Origin: an uncultured candidatus Porisulfidus sp.
Lineage (GTDB): Bacteria; Pseudomonadota; Gammaproteobacteria; Poriferisulfidales; Poriferisulfidaceae
DNA: 64,000 nt
Assembly (NCBI GenBank): GCA_965116025.1
Contig: OZ220480.1
Coordinates: 608,001 to 672,000 of the forward strand
Direction: 5' to 3'
In this document: positions 23,561 through 64,000 of the stretch, one piece after another
Position numbering within the stretch: the stretch's first letter is position 1
How the letters are laid out: every line of letters begins with the position of its first letter
Position numbers and translations under genes: made by a program
Notes under the pieces: generated by a model
What the model was told of the DNA's origin: nothing
Seen by the model: the letters and a program-made list of their open reading frames with translations, nothing else
The model's database searches: none

Positions 23561-26500
23561 ATGACCAAGAACCTGTCCATTTTCGAGATTCGCGCCGCGC
23601 TTCGCGGGGCTTCGTCGTCTTCCCGCATAGGGGGGGGGGGGGGGGGGGGGGGCATAGCCTCCATTTCCTGACCGTTCTGGCCGGATTCACGGCCATTCTC
23701 GCGGTTCCGCACTCCGCCGTCGCGGTGAACGAGTGCGGCGCTACCAGCCCGGTCACCTGCGGCGACGCGAGTTACACCTCCACTAGCGACTCCCCGATCA
23801 AGTATGAGAATCGGACCGGGGGGCTGACCTTGACCGTGAAGCCTTCCGCGGCGGGCACGGTCACCATCACTTCCACGAAGCTTCCCGCGGATGATACCGA
23901 GGCGTTCCCGGGGATCCACCTGGACGGGGAAGGCACTCTGAAAGTCCTCTTGGATGGCGCCGTGAAAGTCTTGAACGGGGCGACCCGGACGACGGTGGAG
24001 GCCACGTACGACGGAGAGAAGCAACAGTTCATCGACCCGGCTCACAAGCGCGGCTCGCAGAACGACGGGGTGTACGTGGCGTACGACAAGGATGACGACG
24101 CGGGGACGACGAAGGGCATGGTGGAGGTGATGGTGGGGAAGGACGCGATGATCGGGAGCGCGACGGCGCCGGCGGGACGGTACGGGGTTCACGCCACCTT
24201 CATGGACGCGGACGGCGACGCCAACTATCCGGCCGGGAAGATCAAGGTGACGAGCGCGGGGAAGGTTTACGGTCATTTCGCGGGGATTTACGCGAAGCAC
24301 GACGGGGCCGGGGACATTGAGATCGAGACGTCGGAGGGGAGCGTGACGTCGATGGGGATTCGGGCGATCTCGAACAAGGCTGACAAGGCGGATCGGGGCG
24401 GGAATATCGCCATTCGCCATCATGGCGCGATCATGGTCAAGGATCCGGCTCGGTACGCGGAAGAGATCATGACGACGGGCGCGCTGACGACGGCCACGCC
24501 GGTGGAGATGGACAAAGTCAGCTTTGGCGGCCGGCACAGAGCCGGGATCTACGTGGAGCACAGGGACAAGGATGGGGGCACGGACGCGAAGCCCAGCAGC
24601 TCGATCATGGTGGAGTCGAGCGGCGACATCGCCGCCCATCCGATCCACGGCAAGGAAGGCGACAACAGAGCGAGAAGAAACGCCATTTACGTCGATACGC
24701 GGGGGGATCAGAATTCCTCCGTGGTGCCGGTCATGATCGACGTGACGGGGGGCGCCCTGACGGCGGACGACCCGAGCGGAAGAAACGGAGGGTATGGGAT
24801 TTTCGTCTATCACTTTCAGCACAAAGGCGGTTTGATCAAGGTGGACCTCGCCGGCGAGATCGCGCGGACGGGAGACATAAGAGATGGGATCGGAATTTAC
24901 CGGTACTCCAAGGCCGATTTCGACGACTCGGTCAATCGGGACATTGAGGTGACGCTGAGGTCTGGCGCGCGGATCGGAATGGAAGGAGAGGCGCCGACCG
25001 TGGGCCGGGATGGCGTGAACGTTCGCCAGCAAGCGGCCGGGGGGACGATCCGTGTGACCATCTCCGAGGGGGCGCGGATCGGGACCACGGGGACTCCGGT
25101 TGGCCGGTACGGCGTGTCCATTGATACGGTCGAGGCTGATGACGAGACTGACATCATGGTCACCAACGCGGGCTTCATCCACGCGAAGGGCTCGGGAGTG
25201 GCCGCTCTGCATCGCGGCTGGGGCGACGTGATCGTGGAGCATCTGGCGGGAGAGATCGTCGCGGGCGACGGGCCCGATATCTTGGAATCCATCGGATCGG
25301 AGGATCACAAGACGAAGCTGGCGGATCTGAAGTCTCGGACCGCCGGCATCCTCGCCGTTCATGGAGGCTCGGAGCCCAAGCCGCTTCCCGGCAAGAATAT
25401 CAGCAATAACGACCCCTCCACCTACGAGTCCGACATCGGGGAGATCAAGATCACGTCGAAGGCGAACGTCACGTCGAAGGGCGACGGCATTCTCGCCTAC
25501 GTGAGAGACCTGGACGATTCGAGAGCCAGGAGCCCCAAGATGCGAGTCCCGATCATGATCGATGTTTCAGGCGGAACGATCACGGCGGACGGCCACGGCG
25601 TCCACGCGGAGACGGCCACTATCTACCAGGGCACCTACGCGAATACGGAGACCACCTACGACGACGCGACGAAAGCCGGAAAGATCAGCGTCACGGTAGG
25701 GGAGATGGCGACGATCCGGGCCAAGAAGGACGGGGTGCATGTCAAGGGCATGCGGACCTTCGCGGAAGATCACGCTACCCGGGCGGGGCACTACGACCAG
25801 ACGGTCACCATCAACGGCAAGGTGATGGGCGGCGGCGGCGAGCACGCCGGCGTTCGGATGGTGAACGGCGGGACGCTGATGATCGGGCCGAAGGCGGAGA
25901 TCAGCGCGACGTCGGGGATCGCGGTGAGCGCGGACAAGGCGCTGCATGTCACCCTGAAGGAGAATGAGCATGGGCAGATCGCTTTCGTCATGGGGAAATT
26001 CCTGAACAGTGGAAAGGACGCGCCGAACGTCTTCCAGCGGGAGTTGATGGCCGGCGCGAAGAAGACGATAGCCGTGGGGGACGCGGTGAAGGCGACGTCG
26101 GGGAAGACGGGGACGCATGGGGTGTATGACGCGGTGTTCGAGCGTATGGTCACGCTGAAGTCGATCACGGGCGGGCATCAGTTCCAGGTGGACTCCGAGA
26201 AGGAGATCAGCCGGACGTACCACGCCCGGGCTCGGGTGTACGAGGCGCTGCCGTCGGTGCTGCTGGAGATGAGCGCGCCGGGCGGTCGTCAGGCGCGTTT
26301 GTCGGCGACGCGAGACGGCGGGGGCGCTTGGGCGCGGGTGTTGGCGAGCGACGGCGAGCGGGAGGTGGAGACATCCACGACCGAGATGGACGATGCGGGT
26401 CGCGCGCTGTCTTGGGATTTCGAGCGCTGGGGCGTGGAGACGGGCATCGTCGTTCCTACGGACGCGCCGGGGCTGATGCTGGGCGTGAGCGCGCACTACC

Positions 26501-27123
26501 GCGACGGCGAGGCGGACGTCGCGCGGGGCGGGAAGATCGAGGTCTCGGGCGTGGGCGTCGGGGCATCGGCGACTTGGCGGGGGGAGGACGGCTGGTACGC
26601 GGACGGGGAGCTCTCGTACACGCGGTTCGAGGATGTCGACTTGAGCTCGGAGACTCGGGGGATGGTGGCGTCCGGTCTGGACGGAGAGGGTCACGCGATC
26701 GGCGTGGAGGTCGGCAGGCGCATGGAGATGAACGGTCTGGCGGTGATCCCGCGTGGGGGGCTAACCTGGTCGTCGGTGGACATGGACGATTTCGCCGACG
26801 TGTCGGGCGTGGCCGGAAGCGGTCGGGTGGAGTTCAGCTCGGAGGACAGCGCGCGGGCGCGTATCGGGGTACTGTTGGAGAACGGCGAGACGTACGCCTC
26901 ATTGGACGTGGAGCGCGAGCTGTCGGAGAGCCGGGACGTGATGGCTTCGGGGTCGCGCCTGCGCTCGGAGGTGGAGTCCACGTGGGCGCGATTGGGCGTC
27001 GGGGGCGTGATGGTCTTGGATGAGAAGGGAGAGTCGACGCTATCAGGTGACGCTCACTACGCGGCGTCGGACGGCGACAATCATGATTACGGCGCGAGCG
27101 TCCTTCTGAAGGCTCGCTTCTGA
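23561..27123 (+). CDS. Autotransporter (type Va) with beta-helical passenger; out of frame at a G23 tract (phase OFF)
   Basis: C-terminal beta-barrel (RVYEALP, AWARVLASDG, ...YGASVLLKARF); signal peptide split across frames by poly-G. Confidence 0.9.
23630..23652 (+). repeat. G23 homopolymer (candidate slipped-strand switch)
   Basis: 23 consecutive G in the signal-peptide coding region. Confidence 0.9.
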
Positions 27124-50982: not shown

Positions 50983-51975
50983 ATGAAGGTCTCGATACTG
51001 GGGCAGGGCGCATGGGGAACGGCGCTGGCCCTTCACGTATCCCGAGCGCGGTCGACGCGCTGGTGGGGACGCGACCCAGAGCGATGCCGAACGCTGGCGC
51101 GCGCGCGTCGGAACGAGGCGACCTTTCCAGACCACGCCATTCCAGAATCGATCCAGATCACGCCGGATCTCCAGGACTGCGTGGAGGACAGCGACTGGGT
51201 GGTTCTGGCGGTGCCGGTCGCCGCGATGACCGAGGTCGCCGTGGCACTAAGGTCCGCCTCCTTCGGTGGCCTAATCTGGACATGCAAAGGAATGGATCCG
51301 AAGAGCGGGCGCATGCCTGGCGAAATCCTGGACGACGCGCTAGGCCCGGGCGGGCGAAGAGCCGTTCTGTCGGGACCCTCCTTCGCGAGCGACTTGGTCG
51401 CGGGCCTGCCAGCGGCCGTCGTGGTGGCGGCAGAAGATCCCACGGTCGCGGAAGCGGCCGCGGAAGCGTTTCATCATGGATCGTTGCGGGTCTACGCGGG
51501 CGCGGACCCACTCGGCGTCCAGCTCGGCGGCGCCGTGAAGAACGTCCTGGCGATCGCCGTCGGCGTGGCGCATGGCCTGCGGCTCGGCGACAGCGCGCGC
51601 GCCGCGCTGATCACGCGCGGCGTGAGCGAGCTGACGCGATTGGGCAAGGCCTTGGGCGCGGACCCCGCGACCCTGTCCGGCCTGTCCGGTTTGGGAGACA
51701 TCGTCCTGACCTGCTCCAGCGCCCGATCGCGCAACTTCCGCTTGGGCCAGCTGATCGGTGAGGGCCGGTCCGTCGAGCGGGCCTGCGCCGAGATTGGCCA
51801 AGTCACCGAAGGGCGCCATACCGCGCTCGGACTGGACCACCTGAGGCGGAAGCAAGGGATCGAGTTGCCGATCTGCGAGCAGACGCTACGCGTGCTCACG
51901 GGAACCATTCGTCCCGCCCAAGCGGTCGATGCCTTACTGTCGCGCCCCTCCACTTCCGAGGCGGCGCATGCCTGA
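50983..51975 (+). CDS. gpsA: NAD(P)H-dependent glycerol-3-phosphate dehydrogenase
   Basis: GQGAWGTALA, LSGPSFA, GGAVKNVLAIA, GLGDIVLTC. Confidence 0.95.
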   Translation: MKVSILGQGAWGTALALHVSRARSTRWWGRDPERCRTLARARRNEATFPDHAIPESIQITPDLQDCVEDSDWVVLAVPVAAMTEVAVALRSASFGGLIWTCKGMDPKSGRMPGEILDDALGPGGRRAVLSGPSFASDLVAGLPAAVVVAAEDPTVAEAAAEAFHHGSLRVYAGADPLGVQLGGAVKNVLAIAVGVAHGLRLGDSARAALITRGVSELTRLGKALGADPATLSGLSGLGDIVLTCSSARSRNFRLGQLIGEGRSVERACAEIGQVTEGRHTALGLDHLRRKQGIELPICEQTLRVLTGTIRPAQAVDALLSRPSTSEAAHA

Positions 51976-52921
51976 CTCCGACCCGCTGGAAATTGCTTTT
52001 TGCGGCCTGTCGCTACGCTCCCCGCTGGTCCTGCTCTCGGGTTGCGTCGGCTTCGGGGATGAATACACCCGGGTCGAGGGCTTCTCGCACGACGAGGTGG
52101 GGGCGGTCTGCCTCAAGGGAACCACTCTGGAGCCCCGCCTCGGCAATCCGCCGCGCAGGCTGGCGGAGACTCCCGACGGCCTACTGAACTCGATCGGCCT
52201 GCAGAACCCGGGGGTGGACGCGGTCATCCGCGACGAGCTGCCAAAACTTGACTTCTCCACCACCCGCTTCTTCGCCAACGTCTCCGGGGCGACCGTCGAG
52301 GAGTACGCGGAGATCGCGCGCCGCTTCGACGACTCTCCGGTCGACGGCGTCGAGATCAACATTTCCTGCCCCAACGTCAAGGCGGGCGGAATGGAGTTCG
52401 GGAACGATCCGAGAATGTCGGCGGCCGTGGTCTCCGCCTGCCGGGCGGTCACGTCCAAGCCCCTGATCGTCAAGATGTCGCCAAACCAGACCGACATCCG
52501 GGCCGGCGCGCGCGCCTGCTTGGAAGCGGGGGCCGACGCCTTCGCGGTCATCAACACCGTCTCCGGGATGGCCATTGATGCCGAATCCCGCCGCGCCACG
52601 CTCGGCGCGGGGCGGGGCGGGCTGTCCGGCCCCGCGATCAAGCCCATCGCGCTTCTGAAAGTCCACGAGGTCCATGGAGAAGTCGCGGCGCATGGCGTCC
52701 CGATCATTGGGCAGGGTGGGGTGGTCACCGCGACGGACGCGCTGGAATTCCTGATCGCGGGCGCCTCCGCCGTGGGGGTCGGAACCGGGCTGTTTTACGA
52801 TCCTCTGACCTGTCGCGCGATCAACCAGGGCATCCGCGACTACCTGTCGCGCCACGGGCTGAGTTCGGTCGCCGATCTGACCGGCGCCTTGGAATATCCG
52901 GACGCTCAGTCTTCCGAGTAG
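51968..52921 (+). CDS. pyrD: Dihydroorotate dehydrogenase, class 1
   Basis: NSIGLQNPG, EINISCPN, VINT, GGLSGPAIKP. Confidence 0.92.
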   Translation: MPDSDPLEIAFCGLSLRSPLVLLSGCVGFGDEYTRVEGFSHDEVGAVCLKGTTLEPRLGNPPRRLAETPDGLLNSIGLQNPGVDAVIRDELPKLDFSTTRFFANVSGATVEEYAEIARRFDDSPVDGVEINISCPNVKAGGMEFGNDPRMSAAVVSACRAVTSKPLIVKMSPNQTDIRAGARACLEAGADAFAVINTVSGMAIDAESRRATLGAGRGGLSGPAIKPIALLKVHEVHGEVAAHGVPIIGQGGVVTATDALEFLIAGASAVGVGTGLFYDPLTCRAINQGIRDYLSRHGLSSVADLTGALEYPDAQSSE

Positions 52922-53760
52922 CCGAGACGCTCCAGCAGACCCTGCAAAGAATCCTCGCTACTGTAGCGCAGCACCAGATCGCCTCCCTTCTTTCCGGGGC
53001 GTAACGTGACCGGGCAGCCCATATGGTCGGACAGGCGCTGCTGCAGCCGGGTCAGGTCCGGGTCCGGCTCGGGCGGGCGAGGGGGCTTCTCGGGGGCTCT
53101 CGCCCGGCGCTCGGTCTGCCGAACCGAAAGCCCCTCCTCCTGTATGGCGCGCGCCAGCTCTTTCTGCCGCGCGACCGGCAAGGGCACCAGCACCCGGGCG
53201 TGCCCCATGCTGATCTTGCCGTCCCGCACCCACTCCTGGACTTCCGGGCAAAGCTCCAGCAAGCGGATCAGATTGGTGACGGTGGCGCGCGCCCGGCCGA
53301 CCCGCTCGGCGATTTGCCCATGGGTCTGGCTCAGGCGGTCGGCCAGCGCGCGCAACGCCTGAGCCTCCTCGATCGGATTGAGGTCCTCGCGCTGGATGTT
53401 CTCGATCAGGGTCGCCGTCGCGGCCTCGTCGTCGGACAGGTCGCGGACCACCGCGGGCAAAGACCGGAGCCCCGCGGCGAGGGCCGCGCGGAAACGCCGC
53501 TCGCCCGCCACCAGCTCGTACCGCCCTCCGACCGGCCGCACCAGAATCGGCTGCAGCGCGCCACGCTTTTTCAAAGACGCGGCCAATGTCTTGATCGTAT
53601 GGTCGTCGAAACGGGAGCGTGGCTGATACGGGCTCGCGCGCAGCTCGCTCAGCGGAATTTCCTGAAGACCCGGGCCATCAGACTCCGCGCCCGACTTCAG
53701 GTTTCCGCTCAGGAGGGCGTCCACCCCGGACCCGAGGCGCCGCTTCGGAGAGGAGCTCAT
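52906..53760 (-). CDS. parB: Chromosome partitioning protein ParB
   Basis: PYQPR, LQPILVR, AGERRFRA, IENIQREDLNPIEEA. Confidence 0.96.
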   Translation of the reverse strand: MSSSPKRRLGSGVDALLSGNLKSGAESDGPGLQEIPLSELRASPYQPRSRFDDHTIKTLAASLKKRGALQPILVRPVGGRYELVAGERRFRAALAAGLRSLPAVVRDLSDDEAATATLIENIQREDLNPIEEAQALRALADRLSQTHGQIAERVGRARATVTNLIRLLELCPEVQEWVRDGKISMGHARVLVPLPVARQKELARAIQEEGLSVRQTERRARAPEKPPRPPEPDPDLTRLQQRLSDHMGCPVTLRPGKKGGDLVLRYSSEDSLQGLLERLGYSED

Positions 53761-54536
53761 GGGACCTCCCGGGGTTCGACGCGTTCACGGCGCAGAATCT
53801 CGCCCGCCAGCATCAGGTACGAGACGGCGCCCCGGCTCGACGGATCATAGGCCGAGACCGGGCGGCCATGGCTGGGCGCCTCCGCGAGCGTGACGTTGCG
53901 CGGAATCATGGTTCGATAGACTTGCTCGCCAAAATGCTCCAGGAGCGACTCGGAAACCTCCCGCGACAGCTTGTTCCGCGAATCATACATGGTGCGAAGA
54001 ATCCCCGCGATGGCGAGCCGGCTGTTGGCTCGCCGGGAAACCTGGGCGATGGTGTCGAGCAAGGCGCTCAGCCCCTCCAGCGCGTAGAACTCGCATTGCG
54101 TCGGCACGATCACCCGGTCGGCCGCCACCAGCGCGTTGATGGTGAGGATGTTGAGCGACGGGGGACAGTCGATGAGAACATAGTCGTCCGCGCCAACGGC
54201 CAGCGCCTCGCGCAACCGATACTCGCGGCGGTCCTCCGCCATGAGGCGCACCTCGACCCCGGTCAGATCCGGTTTCGCCGGCAAGACGTCGAACCCTCCT
54301 TCCGGGACTCCCGCGCGCGCCTCGTCCACCGACGCCTCGCCCAGCAGCGTGTCCGCGCAGCTTAAAGCCAGTTCGCCTTTGTTCAGGCCGCAGCCCGTGG
54401 TGGCGTTGCCCTGCGGATCCAGGTCCACCAGCAACGACTTTTTGCCGGCGGACGCCAACGCCGCCGCCAAGTTGATCGCGGTCGTGGTCTTCCCGACCCC
54501 GCCTTTTTGGTTGCAGATGGCGAAGACCCGGGTCAT
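53757..54536 (-). CDS. parA: Chromosome partitioning ATPase ParA
   Basis: NQKGGVGKTT, DLDPQGNAT, DCPPSL, EAPSHG. Confidence 0.96.
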   Translation of the reverse strand: MTRVFAICNQKGGVGKTTTAINLAAALASAGKKSLLVDLDPQGNATTGCGLNKGELALSCADTLLGEASVDEARAGVPEGGFDVLPAKPDLTGVEVRLMAEDRREYRLREALAVGADDYVLIDCPPSLNILTINALVAADRVIVPTQCEFYALEGLSALLDTIAQVSRRANSRLAIAGILRTMYDSRNKLSREVSESLLEHFGEQVYRTMIPRNVTLAEAPSHGRPVSAYDPSSRGAVSYLMLAGEILRRERVEPREVP

Positions 54537-55231
54537 GGCTCCTCCGCGTCGACGTACAGAGGGTGGAGCGCGACTACTGTTCGGCCCGGATCTTTCCCGC
54601 GCCCGATCTCGGGAGCCCACCCGGCCGGGAGCTCCCGCAGTTCCGACTCGATATCCTCGCCCTTCGGAAACAAGAAGATTCCGTCCGGGGCGACCAGATG
54701 AGCGGCGCCGCGGACCATCTCCGAAAGCGAGCCCACGGCGCGCGCCATAACGCAATCGAACGGGTCGGCCTCGTAGCGCTCCGCCTCTTCCGTGACGACC
54801 TCGACGTTGGACAGATCCAGCTCCAGTTTCGCCTGGCGGACGAAGCGGGTCTTCTTGCGGCTACGGTCGAGCAGCGTGAACCACCGATCCGGATGGGCCA
54901 CGGCCAGCGGCAAGCCCGGCAGGCCCGCCCCCGTGCCGAGATCCAGAATACGGTGAGCGTGGGATGGAAGCGACCGGGAGAGCGAGAGCGCGTCCAGGAT
55001 ATGCCGCGGGACGATTTCCGGCAAGGTTCGGGCTCCCACCAGGCCACAGGATCGGTTCCATCGCTCGACCAGCGCGCAATAGGTCAGCAGGGTCTCGATT
55101 TGGGAGGAAGACAGGTCCAGACCGGAAATCTTCCGGATGCCCTCTCGCAACTGAAGCTCCAGCGCGTCCTTCGCCGGCAGGCGAGGAGCTTCGGAAGATC
55201 CACGGAAAGGAGGGGCCCGGCCCGCCTTCAT
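54533..55231 (-). CDS. rsmG: 16S rRNA m7G527 methyltransferase
   Basis: RHILDAL, DLGTGAGLPG, ARA. Confidence 0.93.
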   Translation of the reverse strand: MKAGRAPPFRGSSEAPRLPAKDALELQLREGIRKISGLDLSSSQIETLLTYCALVERWNRSCGLVGARTLPEIVPRHILDALSLSRSLPSHAHRILDLGTGAGLPGLPLAVAHPDRWFTLLDRSRKKTRFVRQAKLELDLSNVEVVTEEAERYEADPFDCVMARAVGSLSEMVRGAAHLVAPDGIFLFPKGEDIESELRELPAGWAPEIGRGKDPGRTVVALHPLYVDAEEP

Positions 55232-57066
55232 GCGCGAGAACCCCGCCGCCGAGCGTCATCGGCCTTCAGGTGAACCTTCAGGATGGCGACAGCGGCGGGC
55301 GTCACCCCGGGAACGCGGGCGGCCTGCCCCAGCGTCGCGGGGCGGCAGTGGCTGAGCTTTTCCCGCGCCTCATGCGACAGAGCAGAGATTGAGCGGTAAT
55401 CGATCCCCTCAGGCAAACGGCGGACCTCGTCGCGCTTCAGCTTCTCGATTTCTTGCTTGTGACGGCGAATATAGCCCTCGTAGCGCAACTCGATCTCGGC
55501 CTGACGGCCGATGTCGGGCCGGGCCGGCTCATAGTCCGGAGCGCCCGAGACGGCATCGGCGTAAGCGGTATCGGGACGACGCAGAACGTCGGCCAAGCTA
55601 CCTTCGCCCAGCCGGGTGGACCGTAAGCGTCGCAGTTCCGCCTCGACCGCGTCGCGCCGTTCGCGAAAAAGCTCCCATTGCGCGTCTCCGACCAGGCCCA
55701 GCTCGCGCCCAATCTCGGTCAGACGCAAATCGGCGTTGTCCTCCCGCAAGCTCAGCCGATATTCGGCGCGACTGGTGAACATGCGGTAGGGCTCGTCCAC
55801 TCCCCGGGTGGTCAGGTCGTCGACCAAAACGCCGATGTACGCCTGATCCCGGCGGGGCCACCAAACGTCCCGGCCCAGGCTTTGGGCCGCGGCGTTGAAG
55901 CCCGCGAGCAGCCCTTGCGCGGCCGCCTCCTCGTAGCCGGTCGTGCCGTTGATCTGCCCGGCCAGGTACAGTCCGGGAAGCGCCTCGCAGCATAGCGTCG
56001 GACGCAGTTGCCGAGGGTCGAAGAAGTCGTATTCGATGGCGTAGCCATGGCGCGTCAGCCGCGCCTCCTCGAACCCCGGAATCGTCCGGACGAACCGCTC
56101 CTGCGCCTCGGCCGGCAGACTGGTGGAGATTCCGTTGGGATAGACCACGTGGGTGCCCAGCCCTTCGGGCTCGATGAACACCTGGTGCGACGGACGGTCG
56201 GCGAAGCGAACCACTTTGTCCTCGACCGAAGGGCAATAGCGCGGCCCGCGACTGTCGATAGCACCGGTTCGCATTGGCGACTGGTGCAAATGCGCGCGGA
56301 TCACGTCGTGGGTGGCCTCCGTCGTGCGCGTCAGATGGCAATCCACTTGCCGCGGACGCGCGTCCAGAGAGCTGAGCCGGGACAACGGCGGCGGAGGGAT
56401 CTCCCCGGGCTGGGGGGTGGTCTTGGACCAATCGACGCTCCGGCCATCCAATCGGGGAGGGGTTCCGGTCTTGAGGCGCCCGACGTTCGGCAGCAACTCG
56501 CGCAACCGCCGCGCCAAAAGCAGGGAAGCGGGATCTCCGGCGCGTCCGCCCCGGGTCTGGTCAGCGCCGACATGAATGGCGCCGTCCAGAAACGTGCCGG
56601 TCGCCAGCACCACCGCGGACGCCTCGATACGGTCGCCTTCCTCGGTGAGGACGCCGCGCGCCCTGCCACCACGCTCAATCAGGTCGCCGACGGCGACGGC
56701 CCGGACCTCCAGATTTCGCTCCTCAGCGACGGCTCGCTGGATCGCTTCGCGATACAGCTCGCGGTCGGTCTGGACGCGGGTGGCCCGCACGGCGGGGCCC
56801 TTGCTGCGATTGAGCACCCGGACGTGGATGCCAGCGCGGTCCGCGGCACGCGCCATGACCCCTCCGAGCGCATCGATCTCGCGCGCCAGATGACTTTTCC
56901 CGATCCCCCCGATCGCCGGGTTGCAGCTCATCTGGCCGATCGAGTCGACGCGGTGGGTCAGAAGCAAGGTTCGCGCGCCCACGCGCGCGGCCGCCAAAGC
57001 CGCCTCCACGCCGGCGTGTCCGCCACCGATGACCAGAACGTCCCAAACGCGCGTCGCGTCCTTCAT
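55228..57066 (-). CDS. mnmG: tRNA uridine-5-carboxymethylaminomethyl modification enzyme
   Basis: GGGHAGVEAA, MSCNPAIGG, KTGTPPR, PRYCPS, GQINGTTGYEEAAAQG. Confidence 0.97.
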   Translation of the reverse strand: MKDATRVWDVLVIGGGHAGVEAALAAARVGARTLLLTHRVDSIGQMSCNPAIGGIGKSHLAREIDALGGVMARAADRAGIHVRVLNRSKGPAVRATRVQTDRELYREAIQRAVAEERNLEVRAVAVGDLIERGGRARGVLTEEGDRIEASAVVLATGTFLDGAIHVGADQTRGGRAGDPASLLLARRLRELLPNVGRLKTGTPPRLDGRSVDWSKTTPQPGEIPPPPLSRLSSLDARPRQVDCHLTRTTEATHDVIRAHLHQSPMRTGAIDSRGPRYCPSVEDKVVRFADRPSHQVFIEPEGLGTHVVYPNGISTSLPAEAQERFVRTIPGFEEARLTRHGYAIEYDFFDPRQLRPTLCCEALPGLYLAGQINGTTGYEEAAAQGLLAGFNAAAQSLGRDVWWPRRDQAYIGVLVDDLTTRGVDEPYRMFTSRAEYRLSLREDNADLRLTEIGRELGLVGDAQWELFRERRDAVEAELRRLRSTRLGEGSLADVLRRPDTAYADAVSGAPDYEPARPDIGRQAEIELRYEGYIRRHKQEIEKLKRDEVRRLPEGIDYRSISALSHEAREKLSHCRPATLGQAARVPGVTPAAVAILKVHLKADDARRRGSRA

Positions 57067-58387: not shown

Positions 58388-58479
58388 CCCGCATCGCCGA
58401 TGCTGGCGACATGGCAAAGTCGACGGCTCTTTGCGCTGTGTTAAACTTCACGCTCACCCCCATCAGATATCAACATCTA

Positions 58480-60373
58480 GTGCCCCCCCCCCCCCCCCCC
58501 CCTACAGCTCGTCTTCCCTATCGCCAGCACCAAGGTTGGCAAGCCATACGCGATAGCTGAGCATTGCGTCGTCGGCCCCGACATAGCGTGTCGAGAACTG
58601 ATCCAAAACGCGCTTGACGCGCACGCCTCTTTGCGAGACGGGCAGCCTTGCAAAGTTCTTTTCAAGATCTCCAAGATCAAGACCGAGGAGATTCCCGGAT
58701 ACGCCTGTTACCGGGCGGCCCTGAAAGACGCGCTCAAGTCGTGGAGCCAGAATGAATCCGTATCCACGTATCTCAAATCCATACAGAGAAACCTGAGCCA
58801 GCCAGAACTCGAGGTCCTTTATGTCATTGACAACGGCAAAGGCTTCAGCGAGAGAGGACTGGAGGCCGTCATGGCCGAAGGTTCTCCCGACAAGCAGGAG
58901 GGCTCTACCGGATCATTCGGAGTGGGACACCTCACGAGTTACGGCTTGTCAGGGATTCAGTACATTTGCTACGCGAGCAAGCAACGGGACGGGACGCTGT
59001 TGGCCACCGGTCACGCCATTCTGTCATCGCACGATTCCAATGGCGAGTTGCGCTCGAACAACGGATACTACGTCCAAGAATATCATCCAAGGTTCACCGA
59101 GCCCTTCGATTTTGGGGCGACCGATCAAATTCCCGATTTCCTGCGACGCGAACTGGATCGAATAACGTCTCCCTCCGGGTCCATCATCGCGATATTGGGA
59201 TTCAATCGATTCTCCCAAGGCTCCCGAAAGAGATCTCGCGGGCAAAAAGAACTACATGAACTGATCCGCGAAGCGGTCGCCGAGAATTTCGCTATCGCCA
59301 TTTGGGCGAACCATCTTGAAGTCGACGTTCTCGATACGACGCAGAATGATCTCGAATCGATACTGCACCATACGGTGGACAAGAACGGTATAGAAGAATT
59401 CCTTAAGCACATGGCTCGCCCGGACACCGGGACCAAGGTGCAGACGCTCAAGGCGCAACAAACGCTGGATTCCATCCAAACGTACCGGGAATCCTCAAAG
59501 TCAGGCAATCTCTCCGGCGATTTCAAGGATTGCCAAATCTCTTTGCGCAACCGGGCTCGCGCCCATAGCGTGTCGATCTGGCGCAACGGCATGCTCATCA
59601 CGCGCAAGCATCGGGGACTGGCCAAAAATCAGTTCGATAACAAGAAGCCTTTTGACGCTGTCGTCATGCTGAGCGGCAAGGAGCGTCCCCACGACGCGCA
59701 CGACATCGTGAAAAAAGCGGAAACGCCTATGCACGACAGAATTCAGGAGAACAGGCTTGAGAACGAAACCGAGCGGAAAACGCTGAAACGATGGTTGGAA
59801 GAAATTCGATCATGGATTTCCGAACATGCCGAAGAATCGGGAGGCGAGTCAGCGGATCTGGAAGACGAGATCGTCCTAGATGGAGGCAATACCATGAAAG
59901 AAAAAGCATCAAGGTCCTTGAAAATCATTCCGGGCTCGGGGAATGGCGAAGACGAGCCTATCGATCCCAAAACGCCCAAGACAACACCGCCGTATCCCCC
60001 ACGTCCGGGCCCACGCCGCGTCCGGCGAAAACTCTCTCCAGCGAAAGCCCAAGGGAGGCCGCTCGCGAACGACCGCTACCGAATCCGAATAAAGCCAGAG
60101 GCCCGCGTCGACAGAGGCTTCGTCAAAATCATCATTGACAGCGGGCAAGACCCCAGTTGCAGGGGGGCGATCCAAGACACGCCTCTAGTCATTCGGTCAG
60201 CAAAAAGTCCAGATGGACGAGCATACCGCGTGGGTAGCGGTGGATTGGTTCAGTTGGGCAATCTGCAAGAAGGCGAAACGGTAGTCGTCGATTTGGCTTT
60301 CCGGGATCCGCCCGGGGACTTCAACCAAATCTCTCTAGGCTGTCTGCTCGGAACTACGGAGGAGAAAGAGTGA
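58480..60373 (+). CDS. GHKL (HATPase/MORC-like) domain protein, out of frame at the C20 tract
   Basis: Frame of the 58631 ORF extends upstream to the tract and contains RELIQNALDA (N box), then VIDNGKGF (G1) and GSFGVG (G2); alternative start ATG 58411. Confidence 0.75.
58483..58502 (+). repeat. C20 homopolymer (candidate slipped-strand switch)
   Basis: 20 consecutive C immediately after GTG 58480. Confidence 0.9.
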
Positions 60374-61221
60374 GCACGTTATTTCCCCACCCTGTTCTGC
60401 ATCAGGATACGCTCGACTATAGCGACCCGAAGGCGTACCAAGCGACCTTCAAAAGAATGGGAAAAACCACGCTGGTAGTGGAGCACACCTTGCGGCGAGA
60501 CACATTGATCGCTTCGTTGATTGAGCAAGAAAAGGCTTCTTTCTACTGCACGGTATCCATCGGGGGAACAGCTTTTCGCAAAACCGAGCCGGCTCCCGCG
60601 AGCATCCGTGATGGGAGCATCACCGCCCATCAAGAAATCGAACACCCCGCCTTCGTCAATCGGTACGACGTATTCGCGTCCGCTGGCGTCCTGAACCACG
60701 AAGCGAAGAGAATGCCATGGGAAAAGGCCACGGGCATTGATGCTTTTTATAAAGACGAAACGTCGGATTTAGAGTTTTCCGCAGGGGCCATGCTCGCTTG
60801 CAGCGGCTGGCGACATTTTTATCCGATGGACGCCTTGTTTCGAATCAAGTCCAATTCCGACCTTAATACGGGAGTATTCCAAGCCGAACCAAGCTATCAG
60901 CCCACCATCCGAATCACCATCCAAATGAACAACAAACTGTACGATGAAGTGGAAGGCAACTCCCAAGGAACAGTTCGGTCGCATGTCCTATGCGCGTCCC
61001 TAATTCCCGTGCTGAAAGAACTTGAAGAGAAATACAAACGCTGCAGCGAGAAAAGCGACACGGAAAGCCTAGACACTGATAGAGCGGACTTAGAGGCGGC
61101 GGAAGGGTTGAAACGATTTCTCATCTCGAAAGAAATTCCGACTTGGGAGGATGAAGCGTTCAACGCGGTTGAAGCGGCATCGAAGTTCAAGCCAGCCATG
61201 CTGGACGACCGCGAGGAATAA
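60370..61221 (+). CDS. Hypothetical protein (FPHPVL N-terminal motif)
   Basis: 283 aa, coupled to the GHKL gene (GTGA overlap). Confidence 0.8.
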   Translation: MSTLFPHPVLHQDTLDYSDPKAYQATFKRMGKTTLVVEHTLRRDTLIASLIEQEKASFYCTVSIGGTAFRKTEPAPASIRDGSITAHQEIEHPAFVNRYDVFASAGVLNHEAKRMPWEKATGIDAFYKDETSDLEFSAGAMLACSGWRHFYPMDALFRIKSNSDLNTGVFQAEPSYQPTIRITIQMNNKLYDEVEGNSQGTVRSHVLCASLIPVLKELEEKYKRCSEKSDTESLDTDRADLEAAEGLKRFLISKEIPTWEDEAFNAVEAASKFKPAMLDDREE

Positions 61222-61224
61222 CGG

Positions 61225-62136
61225 ATGACGATTTATCGCCACTTGAGCGACGAGCGCCTGTACCGGTGGGCCAAATCCATGATCGCCAAAAAAGGAAGCG
61301 AGAAACAACGCGAGTTTCTTGCGCATGTCGCTGACGACAGCCCCGATGAATTCGTTGATTATGTGGAAAGCTGTATAGGAAACCGAGCCTCAGCCTATAA
61401 AAACCCCGACGGAGAAACTCCCACCCTGCTCGATCAATCGGGACAACCCGTCGTGTCAATGACTGCCGGCCACATGTATCTCATGCCAGCAAAGGACATC
61501 CAGAGACTGCACGACCACTGGCGAGACATCCCGTATGGAGACGCGGTTTGTCCAACCTTATGGGGCGCGATCACTCTGTCCGAGATTCGAGCGGGCCGAA
61601 TTCATCCTGTCTGGCTCGCCGTGGATCGTAAAGGATGCGAAGACGCGACGCGCAAAGAGATCGAAAGATCTCTGCGAGAAAAACAGGACATGAAAATCGA
61701 TACGCTGGTGCGACGGTGCATGCGGTGGATGACAGCACCAGGAACCATGCGCGGCGCGCCCGAGTTATACGGCAACTGCTCTCTCGCGAAAGCTTGGTGG
61801 TGCGGACATTTCTCGCGTTTGGTCCACGACCAGACTAAAGCCGACCTTGACGAGATCGTTAAATCCCTGCAGAAATCCTGGCTTGGACTGACCGACTATC
61901 TCGCGGGGAAACTGACCGTGATCGGCGAGCCCAGCGTTATCGCGGGATTCACCCTGTGGGCCCGCAAGCGACTCGATCAAGAAAAGCAATTGCCGCGAAA
62001 ACATGTCGAGCGGACCTGCCAGACATTAGGAGAGATCTCTTCCTGGTGCGTGCTCGGCTGGATGTCTGCCGAGGAAATCGAGAGAAAGATTTTCGGCTTC
62101 AAACCAGTAACGAGCTTTCAAGAAGACGTGCACTAA
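61225..62136 (+). CDS. Hypothetical protein
   Basis: 303 aa, 3 bp after the previous stop; NCSLAKAWWCG motif. Confidence 0.8.
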   Translation: MTIYRHLSDERLYRWAKSMIAKKGSEKQREFLAHVADDSPDEFVDYVESCIGNRASAYKNPDGETPTLLDQSGQPVVSMTAGHMYLMPAKDIQRLHDHWRDIPYGDAVCPTLWGAITLSEIRAGRIHPVWLAVDRKGCEDATRKEIERSLREKQDMKIDTLVRRCMRWMTAPGTMRGAPELYGNCSLAKAWWCGHFSRLVHDQTKADLDEIVKSLQKSWLGLTDYLAGKLTVIGEPSVIAGFTLWARKRLDQEKQLPRKHVERTCQTLGEISSWCVLGWMSAEEIERKIFGFKPVTSFQEDVH

Positions 62137-62142
62137 CGCATC

Positions 62143-63534
62143 ATGAGCGCCTCCCGCAGTGGAGCTGTTGATGTTCCGAGACTATCCGCGCATCTTTGGA
62201 GAGGAGGGCTCCCACGTCGCGGAATCCTCCATTATGAATCCGCGAAGCATCGCGATGCTCCACATGTAGTCAAGTTCTCTGGAGGCCGGTCCAGCGGCCT
62301 GATGTTGCTTATCCTCCTAGAAAACGGTTTGCTGAAAGCGGAGCGGGGAGACGTGGTCCTGTTCACGAACACATCCGCCGAGCATCCGGCCACTTATGAC
62401 TTCGTCAAAAAGATGAAGCGCGTCACCGAGCGTATGGGAATTCCTTTCTTTCTCGCCCAGCTACAGACTTTCGAGACCGTCGCGAAAGGCGAATGGCGCC
62501 GCCGGCTAAGCTACCGCCTGACGACCGATAGCCCGGCATCCGCCAAAGATCCTTTGGGCTATGAATATCGCGGAGAGGTTTTCGAGGAGGCAATAGCCTG
62601 GAACGGTATGCTTCCCTCAGTGCATACCCGCGTCTGCACAACGCTGATGAAAATGTTCGTGACTCGGGAGTTTTTGTCAGACTGGTTCGGTAGCGCGGAC
62701 GGAATCCCGATGCGCGGCCATACCGGCGACACTTCCCAAGTAATGCCCAGCATTCTGTACCAGGAACACTTGGTGAATCGAGGAAAAATGTCTTTCATGG
62801 AGTACCGAAAACGCCATGATCTTTTGAAATCCCGACCCACATTCAGGCCCGAGCAAAAGTATGCGGATTACACGAAGGCGACCATCCAAGGCCATGAAAA
62901 TCCAAGACTCAGGGAAAGCGTGCTAGGAAACAAGTGCGAACTATTCGGCGAGCATTCCGCCAAATTTCTGACCTTCTTGGGATTTCGGTTTGGGGAGTAC
63001 GCACGCTACCAGCGAATGACACAACGAAACAAGGGGGAGGAAACCCCCGGACATGACACCCACCCAACGGGCGAGTTTTCTTATTCCCCCCTCTTCGACC
63101 TCGGCATCGATCAAGCCAAAGTGCTACGGTTTTGGAAAAAACAACCGGCGCGCCTGCGCCCCCTCCTTCCGACAGATATTAATCTTTCCAATTGCGTGTA
63201 TTGCTTTCTGAAAGGTCCTCGGGCCCTAGGCGAAATTCAAAACACTAAGAGAGACTTCGAAAAAACGTTGCCTCCTTCCGTGCAAGCCGAGTGCAGGAAA
63301 ACCAAAACGCCCAATTCTATTAACTGGTGGATCCACCTGGAGGATTCGAGAAAGCGAACAGCGAACAAGAAAAACTCGGATGGCAGCAACAACCAAACGT
63401 TCGGCATGTTCGGGCTGAAAGACTTGGACTACCGGGCAATTAAAGAGCGAGCGTTAGTAGAAAAGCGAAAAGACAAGCGGGCTTTCACGGAGACATTGCC
63501 CGCCTCCACCTTGAATTGCGAATGCACCGACTAA
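62143..63534 (+). CDS. PAPS-reductase/PP-loop family protein with Cys motifs
   Basis: FSGGRSSG PP-loop, FTNTSAEHPATYDF, RVCTTLMK, GFRFGE, SNCVYCFLKG, C-terminal CECTD. Confidence 0.85.
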   Translation: MSASRSGAVDVPRLSAHLWRGGLPRRGILHYESAKHRDAPHVVKFSGGRSSGLMLLILLENGLLKAERGDVVLFTNTSAEHPATYDFVKKMKRVTERMGIPFFLAQLQTFETVAKGEWRRRLSYRLTTDSPASAKDPLGYEYRGEVFEEAIAWNGMLPSVHTRVCTTLMKMFVTREFLSDWFGSADGIPMRGHTGDTSQVMPSILYQEHLVNRGKMSFMEYRKRHDLLKSRPTFRPEQKYADYTKATIQGHENPRLRESVLGNKCELFGEHSAKFLTFLGFRFGEYARYQRMTQRNKGEETPGHDTHPTGEFSYSPLFDLGIDQAKVLRFWKKQPARLRPLLPTDINLSNCVYCFLKGPRALGEIQNTKRDFEKTLPPSVQAECRKTKTPNSINWWIHLEDSRKRTANKKNSDGSNNQTFGMFGLKDLDYRAIKERALVEKRKDKRAFTETLPASTLNCECTD

Positions 63535-64000
63535 AGCCCGTTTATTTCGATTACGCGGCCACCACTCCTGTCGATGAGCGCGTTGTGGAAGCGATGACTC
63601 CCTATTGGAAATTGGGCGGAACCTTCGGTAACCCCTCGAGCATTCACCATCCCTATGGGACCGAAGCGGCGAACGCAGTCGAAATGGCGAGGAAAAGAGT
63701 AGCCCGCTTGATTGGAGCGGAAGCCCGCGAGATCATCTGGACATCTGGAGCCACAGAAGCGAACAATCTCGCTATGCGAGGGTGTCTTCAAGCTGGAACA
63801 AAATCTCCGCGCCAGTTGATTACCGTCGCCACCGAACACAGCTCGGTTCTAGACACGGCGATAGCGCTTCGCAAAGAAGGAATGGATGTCAAAGTGTTAC
63901 CAGTTGATCGGAACGGGCTTGTTGGACTGGAAGAGCTCGAGCGGGTGATCAGTGAAGGTGACGCTTTGGTTTCAATCATGTGGGTCAACAACGAAACCGG
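63522..64000 (+). CDS. Cysteine desulfurase (IscS/DndA-like), runs off the right edge
   Basis: Hand translation from ATG 63522: MHRLKPVYFDYAATTPVD...FGNPSS.HHPYG...EIIWTSGATEANNLA...TEHSSV...VSIMWVNNET; overlaps the previous gene by 13 bp. Confidence 0.93.
   Translation, partial: MHRLKPVYFDYAATTPVDERVVEAMTPYWKLGGTFGNPSSIHHPYGTEAANAVEMARKRVARLIGAEAREIIWTSGATEANNLAMRGCLQAGTKSPRQLITVATEHSSVLDTAIALRKEGMDVKVLPVDRNGLVGLEELERVISEGDALVSIMWVNNET

Follow-up and report, generated by a model that had tools for sequence, protein, structure and literature searches.

A cassette of five tightly packed open reading frames (ORFs), termed A to E, occupies positions 58483–64000 on the plus strand of the window, i.e., the whole stretch of 64,000 nucleotides analyzed here, which originates from an uncultured candidatus Porisulfidus sp. 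and lies inside a single 2.02-Mb contig (G000:C1:608001-672000). On balance, this locus probably encodes the modifying core of a so far undescribed system for sulfur modification of DNA, which most likely is of the phosphorothioation type and in which a GHKL ATPase complex replaces the P-loop ATPases. A phosphorothioate as the product is suggested by the superfamily of the candidate sulfur-inserting enzyme D, by its DndA/SspA-type partner E and by neighboring genes encoding a DndB family protein, a sulfur-binding domain (SBD) and DUF262 nucleases.

The cassette encodes, all on the plus strand, the GHKL ATPase A (58505–60373, about 622 aa 3′ of a poly-C tract), the 283-aa protein B, the fold of which was not recognized (60370–61221), the 303-aa DUF6339-like protein C (61225–62136), the 463-aa PP-loop ATP-pyrophosphatase D with the fold of 3′-phosphoadenosine-5′-phosphosulfate (PAPS) reductases (62143–63534), and the cysteine desulfurase E of the DndA/SspA/IscS type, the first 161 aa of which lie inside the window (63516–64000, the window end). 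The reading was extended past the window end (L002; loci carry L numbers here), where the complete E of 384 aa (L002 7516-8670) ends at the window-equivalent position 64670. A and B overlap by 4 nt and D and E by 19 nt, and B is separated from C by 3 nt and C from D by 6 nt. Their GC content is 0.52–0.56 over positions 58500–64000 compared to 0.66–0.70 over positions 51000–57000 and to a genome mean of 0.627, and it reaches its minimum of 0.445 farther along, past the window. ORF calls, spacing and the drop in GC content therefore confirm the five tightly coupled, AT-richer genes of an original prediction made from the letters of the window. The low-GC genes extend up to core genes of normal GC content, so that the unit is a low-GC island of approximately 11 kb, and the five-gene operon is horizontally acquired. 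At the island boundaries neither a tRNA nor flanking direct repeats were found. A scan of the island for promoter-like sites (7 compared to 5.8 in shuffled sequence; none at the poly-C tract) and terminator-like sites (28 compared to a shuffled mean of 14.8, sd 3.7) revealed no site that places the start or the end of the operon.

From its sequence, D is presumed to be the sulfur-inserting enzyme. It shows the SGGxDS-type motif and the Rossmann-like fold of the PAPS-reductase/PP-loop ATP pyrophosphatase superfamily and matches the PAPS_reduct profile with 18.1 bits (cut-off 22.5). A D family profile gave nothing below E 0.1 against the PDB sequences. The SGGRSS/NCxxCFLK/CxC pattern, which had been pointed out for the PP-loop protein before, is present and does not vary: the motifs SGGRSS, SNCVYCFLKG and the C-terminal C-x-C-T-D are invariant in 17 homologs, as are the cysteines C165, C351, C354, C459 and C461. 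A search of the protein collection resulted in 1073 relatives of D at E ≤ 0.001, nearly all of them unnamed, while viral contigs contained one distant relative with 25% identity, showing that the cassette is not a phage family among the viral contigs searched. The partner E matches the PADLOC models for SspA (5.2e-139) and DndA (4.8e-137) over the full length and is at the family level a DndA/SspA cysteine desulfurase; the scores with the NCBIfam models for DndA (376 bits, cut-off 480) and IscS (416 bits, cut-off 548) are both under the equivalog cut-offs. A paralog of E with 44% identity is encoded elsewhere in the genome and presumably does the housekeeping. As had been stated for its 5′ side, no iscR precedes the desulfurase gene, and it is located outside an isc/suf operon, with no iscU or suf gene but a GmrSD-like gene 3′ of it.

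The association of these enzymes with A, B and C is conserved. Scanning one genome per species yielded 268 loci encoding D, and the best 80 of these 268 were analyzed with profiles built from the window proteins; for B, gene position and clean profiles were used, since an iterated B profile drifted onto C via natural fusions. The co-occurrence across genomes, on which the original prediction depended, was found: D is accompanied by A in 78/80, by B in 79/80, by C in 76/80 and by E in 66/80 loci, and the two exceptions for A (L029, L055) are contigs that break off at the place expected for it. The conservation of A beside D is far beyond chance, and neither D nor D-E was found without A-B-C among the 80 loci. 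The usual gene order is D-E-A-B-C; the order A-B-C-D-E occurs in the window, L003 and L004, and A-B-C-D without an adjacent E in L030, L041, L060, L069 and L072. It might be argued that separate systems merely stand side by side, given that defence genes cluster and that the island also holds two nuclease genes (F and G, see below), a helix-turn-helix (HTH) gene and an insertion sequence (IS) fragment. However, this is extremely improbable and contradicted by the 80-locus data, i.e., by the pairing of D with A in 78/80 loci, the operon spacing, the occurrence in many phyla and the fact that the set stays contiguous although its order is permuted (A-B-C-D-E compared to D-E-A-B-C). The 80 loci come from metagenome-assembled genomes of Gamma- and Alphaproteobacteria, Spirochaetia, Longimicrobiales, several acidobacterial orders, Binatia, Latescibacterota, Dehalococcoidia, Verrucomicrobiota and further groups. 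Among them, five belong to sponge-derived candidate taxa (Porisulfidus, Poriferihabitaceae with two loci, Porifericomitales and Entotheonella), which is taken only as a hint at the habitat. An enrichment of phosphorothioation genes in metagenomes from sponges has been reported (Horn et al., 2016).

The ATPase A is of the GHKL type, as had been predicted. It matches the Pfam domain HATPase_c_3 (7.6e-4, below cut-off), the sacsin-type GHKL domain NF047352 (4e-8) and the PADLOC model PDC-M33A (2e-33, 114 bits; a partial match over 50–420 of 627), and a profile of the A family matches the Hsp90 N-domain 3ied (2e-5). The Bergerat-fold motifs that define GHKL/paraMORC ATPases are intact, namely motif I (RELIQNALDA), motif II (DNGKG) and the G-box (GSFGVGH), and all 18 of 18 aligned A sequences share E31, N35, D38, D109-N-G-x-G113, G136/G139/G141 and E406...H410. 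In the middle domain, R-N-G-M and E-x-x-x-H are invariant in this 18-sequence alignment, and the C-terminal region is variable. The E-x-x-x-H motif was described as a mark of the paraMORC2 group of restriction-modification (R-M)-associated GHKL ATPases (Iyer et al., 2008, PMC2292703); the membership of A in paraMORC2, assigned by this motif alone, is a lead.

The proteins B and C had been called two unknowns, and this holds for B in so far as its fold was not recognized, whereas C is close to DUF6339 and both are distant matches to PDC-M33B and PDC-M33C. B matches PDC-M33B (1.3e-8) with its N-terminal 70 residues only; a profile of its family gave nothing below E 0.1 against the PDB sequences, its alignment shows no invariant acidic/lysine catalytic set of the nuclease kind, and in the ESM Atlas it falls to clusters of unnamed bacterial proteins of about 284 aa (score 0.97). 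C matches DUF6339 (PF19866), a domain found in 2/401 genomes of the phylum sample, with 23.1 bits (7.2e-5; gathering cut-off 23.2 bits) and PDC-M33C with 1.3e-4, and it carries a conserved basic/aromatic motif, RG-x-R...Y-x-N-C...A-x-x-WW. The AlphaFold 2 model of C is all-helical with a predicted local distance difference test value of 88.1; comparison with known structures resulted in nothing convincing and no nuclease fold was recognized, the C family profile gave nothing below E 0.1 against the PDB sequences, the alignment shows no conserved acidic/lysine residues of the nuclease type, and the ESM Atlas, with low recognition and eukaryotic “hypothetical” clusters, was uninformative. As B and C are naturally fused in two loci (L034 8064-9887, 607 aa; L056 18376-20058, 560 aa), they probably form and act as one unit. 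A complex prediction of B and C with D gave a score of 0.00, which was obtained without controls and is evidence in neither direction.

Judged by profile matches, the A-B-C set appears to be distantly related to PDC-M33, an uncharacterized PADLOC candidate: the order and sizes of the genes are the same, and the matches (2e-33 and partial, 1.3e-8 and 1.3e-4) are distant compared to those of the canonical member L102 (1e-137, 1e-54 and 3e-53 for the A, B and C models). In a PDC-M33A search of 400 genomes of the class, 16 genomes, the own genome included, showed a match. Among the regions fetched, eight have D beside A-B-C (L105-L110, L118, L119), and of eight loci without D, seven carry a C5 methylase (PF00145) beside the A-like gene (L102, L103, L104, L111, L112, L116, L117); the eighth, L113, was not scanned. 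One of the seven, L104 3802-10412 (G000:C1:305301-311911), is a second, divergent PDC-M33-like cassette in the same genome and comprises genes for A′ of 645 aa, B′ of 308 aa and C′ (DUF6339 5e-9, 36.5 bits) along with those for a C5 cytosine methylase and a 457-aa unknown; AbiEi and parE/parC lie beside it. In a quick maximum-likelihood tree of A, in which two pairs of rows represent the same locus fetched twice, a single branch with SH-aLRT 98 separates 26 D-linked from 7 methylase-linked rows, suggesting that the split goes back to a single swap. As the relatives without D stand beside a C5 methylase, D/E appears to replace a DNA methylase, and the simplest reading is that of one core with two interchangeable DNA modifiers. 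For DndD-DndE, such a single core with interchangeable modifiers is described in the available text of PMC10853773.

These data can be combined into the following mechanism. E would mobilize cysteine sulfur as a persulfide, and D would adenylate or otherwise activate the DNA target with ATP and transfer the sulfur onto it, its cysteines being a probable Fe-S cluster/persulfide set. A, as a dimerizing ATPase of the GHKL/paraMORC type, would together with B-C perform ATP-driven clamping or scanning of DNA and position D at its sites, whereby A-B-C would fill the role of DndD-DndE, SspB-SspC or BrxC, and D/E would be a swapped-in alternative modifier on an A-B-C core that is otherwise paired with a C5 methylase. 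Read-out or restriction would be provided by variable neighbors, here F (a DUF262 protein similar to GmrSD/BrxU/SspE) and G (SBD-HNH), and slippage of a tract of 20 cytosines (C20) would turn the system on and off.

A-B-C is placed on the side of the writer as D/E does not occur without A-B-C in the 80 loci, as a single D can be accompanied in several loci by additional A-B-C or B-C sets, as A, B and C show no nuclease signature and as the core stays constant while its restriction partners differ between loci, which is also seen in Dnd and Ssp. In L034, three A-B-C sets and a B-C fusion are arranged around one D, and many sets per D fit a shared enzyme that is served by several targeting modules. 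The main alternative, which is rather unlikely and has TdpABC as its model along with R-M systems, is that D, with E, writes the mark alone and A-B-C is the effector that detects DNA lacking the mark. Such DNA would then be excluded or restricted, be it with no nuclease involved, as in BREX, or through recruitment of the nucleases encoded nearby. This arrangement would agree with the listing of A-B-C by PADLOC as a stand-alone defence candidate, with the paraMORC GHKL ATPases found in R-M operons together with cytosine methylases, Vsr, EcoRII-like and HNH proteins (Iyer et al., 2008, PMC2292703), and with the tdpABC system, for which tdpC alone suffices for phosphorothioate synthesis according to the accessible part of PMC12914056. 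All loci examined have a modifier beside A-B-C, which would be expected if A-B-C were toxic in its absence, and a phase-variable switch on A would be easier to tolerate if A belongs to the restriction side. However, no lone D/E occurs in the 80 loci, whereas R-M systems commonly have orphan modifiers; neither A nor B nor C has a nuclease signature, one sensor core would need to read two chemically unlike marks, 5-methylcytosine and sulfur, and in L034 a single D stands beside several A-B-C sets.

The locus extends past the window, as had been anticipated: inspection of the downstream genes showed that E is followed by genes for two predicted nucleases. F, encoding 605 aa, starts 16 nt past E and has a GmrSD_N/DUF262 domain (1.8e-21); it matches HEC-05 (4.7e-20) and 7p9k (8.3e-6), and SspE only with its N-terminus (7.7e-5). 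An H-H-x-x-P motif was read from the C-terminal sequence (ERHHIFP), and Pfam DUF1524 gave no match to F at E ≤ 0.01. By these matches, F resembles HEC-05 and BrxU/GmrSD-type enzymes more closely than SspE. G, the next gene after F, encodes 325 aa with an HNH_2 domain (1e-7). It matches NF045808, “phosphorothioated DNA-binding restriction endonuclease,” with 3.7e-26 over 3–280 of 284 (91.9 bits, cut-off 180), and with residues 6–150 the solved sulfur-binding domain 8h0l (SBDHga1; 3.6e-10), with the S-P-H-K-P stretch aligned, so that G has the predicted architecture of an SBD-HNH endonuclease, i.e., an N-terminal sulfur-binding domain and HNH. An F-like DUF262 nuclease adjoins 27/80 cassettes, located after C or, in 6/27 (L031, L054, L063, L071, L074, L081), between D/E and A; a G-like gene adjoins 4/80 cassettes, as do DndB family proteins (PF14072).

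These neighbors bear on two further explanations. According to the first, the sulfur is put elsewhere than into the DNA backbone, i.e., into a thiolated DNA base or into a non-DNA substrate such as a tRNA or a cofactor. In support, D stands outside the DndC, SspD and BrxP families, and its invariant cysteine pattern is unlike that in the consulted portions of the BREX and Dnd papers. However, this is improbable as the A-B-C core otherwise pairs with DNA methylases, the neighboring genes encode DNA nucleases, a protein of the DndB family and a phosphorothioate-binding domain, and the site is a low-GC island of the defence type away from translation genes. According to the second, very improbable explanation, A-B-C would recognize invading DNA, D/E would add sulfur as a “foreign” flag, and G and F would read this mark and destroy the DNA. 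Studied members of the F and G families act on modified DNA or are stimulated by it. The idea rests on both recurrent nuclease partners coming from modified-DNA families, the observation that self-marking by D/E explains least well.

The C20 tract is located at the 5′ end of A (58483–58502, plus strand; three-frame translation). The GHKL frame is open from position 58480. A possible leader of A (58411–58482, plus strand; ATG at 58411, GTG at 58480) would read the tract as CCC codons, and three-frame translation places both starts in the GHKL frame only with a C19 or C22 tract. The ATG at 58411, which had been given as the start of A, is hence not supported, being one frame off the GHKL frame across the C20 tract. 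As assembled, A has no in-frame ATG, GTG or TTG 5′ of GHKL motif I; the first is the TTG at 58631 (ORF 58631–60373), past motif I, so that either A is switched off or the consensus length of the tract is off by one nucleotide. In L003, the nearest relative, the same position is taken by a C19 tract, which is in frame and encodes MSHIS-PPPPPP-RLIFP, making it likely that the C20 tract serves as a slipped-strand phase-variation switch of A. The short-read contigs available from three runs, which belong to a single study, all break off at the tract, as do contigs of related strains (90–95% identity) in two further runs. Of the G/C runs of at least 9 nt in the 80 loci, 15/26 lie within the cassette or the 150 nt upstream, which make up 32% of the bases (binomial p 0.006, an overstated value as the runs are concentrated in L013 and L060); of those of at least 12 nt, 10/12 do so.

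Genome-wide, 45 G/C runs of 15–39 nt are present, 31 of which stand at the 5′ end of very long ORFs (stop-to-stop at least 880 aa), and the genome looks like it carries a large repertoire of phase-variable surface proteins. Within the window, a run at 23630–23652 precedes an autotransporter ORF (23725–27123, plus strand; PF03797 8.5e-26). Another C20 tract (G000:C1:772596-772615) is located 43 nt 5′ of a minus-strand GmrSD-like paralog of F (21% identity, tblastn 7e-19). With such tracts at the 5′ ends of a dndC gene (see below), the autotransporter gene and the gene for the GmrSD-like paralog, phase variation by slippage is plausible as a genome-wide habit. In other metagenome-assembled genomes, G/C runs occur within or at the start of the desulfurase gene (L044 11295-11312, L080 11923-11932), and the desulfurase gene of L080 is broken into two ORFs at its G10 run.

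Several observations weigh against the phosphorothioation-type writer favored here. D lies outside the characterized families: TIGR03183 and the PADLOC model for DndC gave no match to D at E ≤ 0.01, the SspD model PDLC02782 matches residues 152–184 only (1.8e-6, 25.9 bits) and BrxP only the PP-loop residues 32–108 (5.1e-6); the 50 VIA matches listed for D do not include a phosphorothioation enzyme of solved structure. Of B and C, structure prediction covered one only, namely C. Gene A is out of frame in the assembly. The genome already has a canonical DndC-DndD-like locus, which E could serve and to which G could relate. Characterized relatives of G cut phosphorothioated DNA, which is awkward beside a writer unless the sequence contexts differ. 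The methylase stands beside an EcoRII-C nuclease in L102 and L117, with an additional Vsr in L102, and may there be part of a conventional R-M system to which A-B-C is just a neighbor, so that the evidence for methylases as partners is good but not clean.

The canonical Dnd-like locus (L125 10230-15245; G000:C1:968230-973245) stands beside a type II R-M pair and AbiEi. Its DndC matches TIGR03183 with 367 bits (968332–969363) and its 5′ end carries a G22 tract; next come a DndD/PbeC-like ABC ATPase and then a protein with a DndH-C-terminal/mad8-like region. The other TIGR03183 match in the genome (502353–502571) scores 14.6 bits.

The cassette appears to work like Dnd, Ssp or BREX type 4 without being a member of any of them, i.e., as a phosphorothioation-type modification on a different ATPase core. 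With DndABCDE (DndFGH/PbeABCD/DndI) it shares a cysteine desulfurase, a PP-loop enzyme of the PAPS-reductase superfamily, an ATPase-driven DNA-handling module and varying restriction partners, in addition to the DndB family gene beside 4/80 cassettes; however, it has no SMC-like DndD and no DndE, its ATPase is of the GHKL and not of the P-loop type, and D is unmatched by DndC models. With SspABCD-SspE it shares E, which scores as SspA, a short match of D to SspD, and F, which has the DUF262 N-domain and the C-terminal H-H-x-x-P motif of SspE/GmrSD and often stands within the operon, but SspE models match F weakly and neither SspB (DUF4007) nor SspC matches A, B or C. The earlier statement that no DndB/D/E or SspB/C is recognizable is thereby upheld, as at E ≤ 0.01 none of these models recognizes A, B or C. 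In BREX type 4, a core that otherwise uses a methylase employs an enzyme of the PAPS-reductase type in its place, in some cases together with a cysteine desulfurase, according to the available portions of PMC12839542 and PMC12914056; the cassette differs in having no BrxC, PglZ, BrxL or DUF4007, no Brx model matches A to G as a BrxC/PglZ/BrxL neighbor, and BrxP matches D over the PP-loop only. To PDC-M33/paraMORC it is linked by the matches of A, B and C and by the GHKL motifs and the E-x-x-x-H motif of A, but these matches are distant and partial, and the modifier is D/E rather than a methylase, whereas the neighbors of canonical PDC-M33 members are C5 methylases, Vsr, EcoRII-C and HNH. TdpABC, likened here by its description in the accessible part of PMC12914056, is a compact phosphorothioation system with one PAPS-reductase-type writer.

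That the system is undescribed, as proposed from the window, holds for the combination, which was found in no paper of the searched literature, but A, B and C distantly match an existing PADLOC candidate. In this literature, “PDC-M33” and “DUF6339” occur in no paper, and no paper joins GHKL/paraMORC with DndC, SspD or PAPS reductase among the matches listed, supplementary tables being outside the scope. GHKL, MORC and HATPase are absent from the reappraisal by Rakesh, Aravind and Krishnan. A recent systematic screen demanded, according to the available text, a P-loop NTPase beside the PAPS-reductase gene (PMC12914056), so that a GHKL-based class would be missed.

If the proposal is correct, a GHKL/paraMORC drive would be a new way to bring a backbone-modifying enzyme to DNA. 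To our knowledge, the known phosphorothioation pathways (Dnd, Ssp, BREX type 4, Tdp) have a sulfur-inserting enzyme with P-loop ATPases or with none. It would also provide a first function for DUF6339 and for the PDC-M33 candidate, and methylase and sulfur-inserting enzyme would be swappable on one core, as in BREX and DndDE. Among the species-level genomes of the collection scanned, at least 268 carry the cassette, including several from sponge-associated candidate taxa, and it may thus shape the traffic of phages and plasmids in symbiont communities.

Past G, the island continues with a divergent pair on the minus strand and an IS fragment, followed by DUF1097, rnpA, yidD, yidC and mnmE with normal GC content. 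At this far end, a CapH-like HTH gene (6e-9) is followed by a gene for a 328-aa protein (L002 11905-13262, minus strand; window-equivalent 67905–69262), to which no Pfam, PADLOC, NCBIfam or PHROG model matches. In the census of genes flanking the 80 cassettes, 3 loci were found to have a superfamily 2 (SF2) helicase and 3 an SMC-like ATPase. Two unknown proteins, of about 505 aa (without Pfam match) and about 650 aa (with Sigma70_r4), adjoin 8 loci each as a pair, located 3′ of C (L058, L076 and L047 among them), and may be an alternative effector module. Finally, a 216-aa protein of the uracil-DNA glycosylase superfamily is encoded just 3′ of the cassette in L003 (14944–15594) and L034 (19165–19815).

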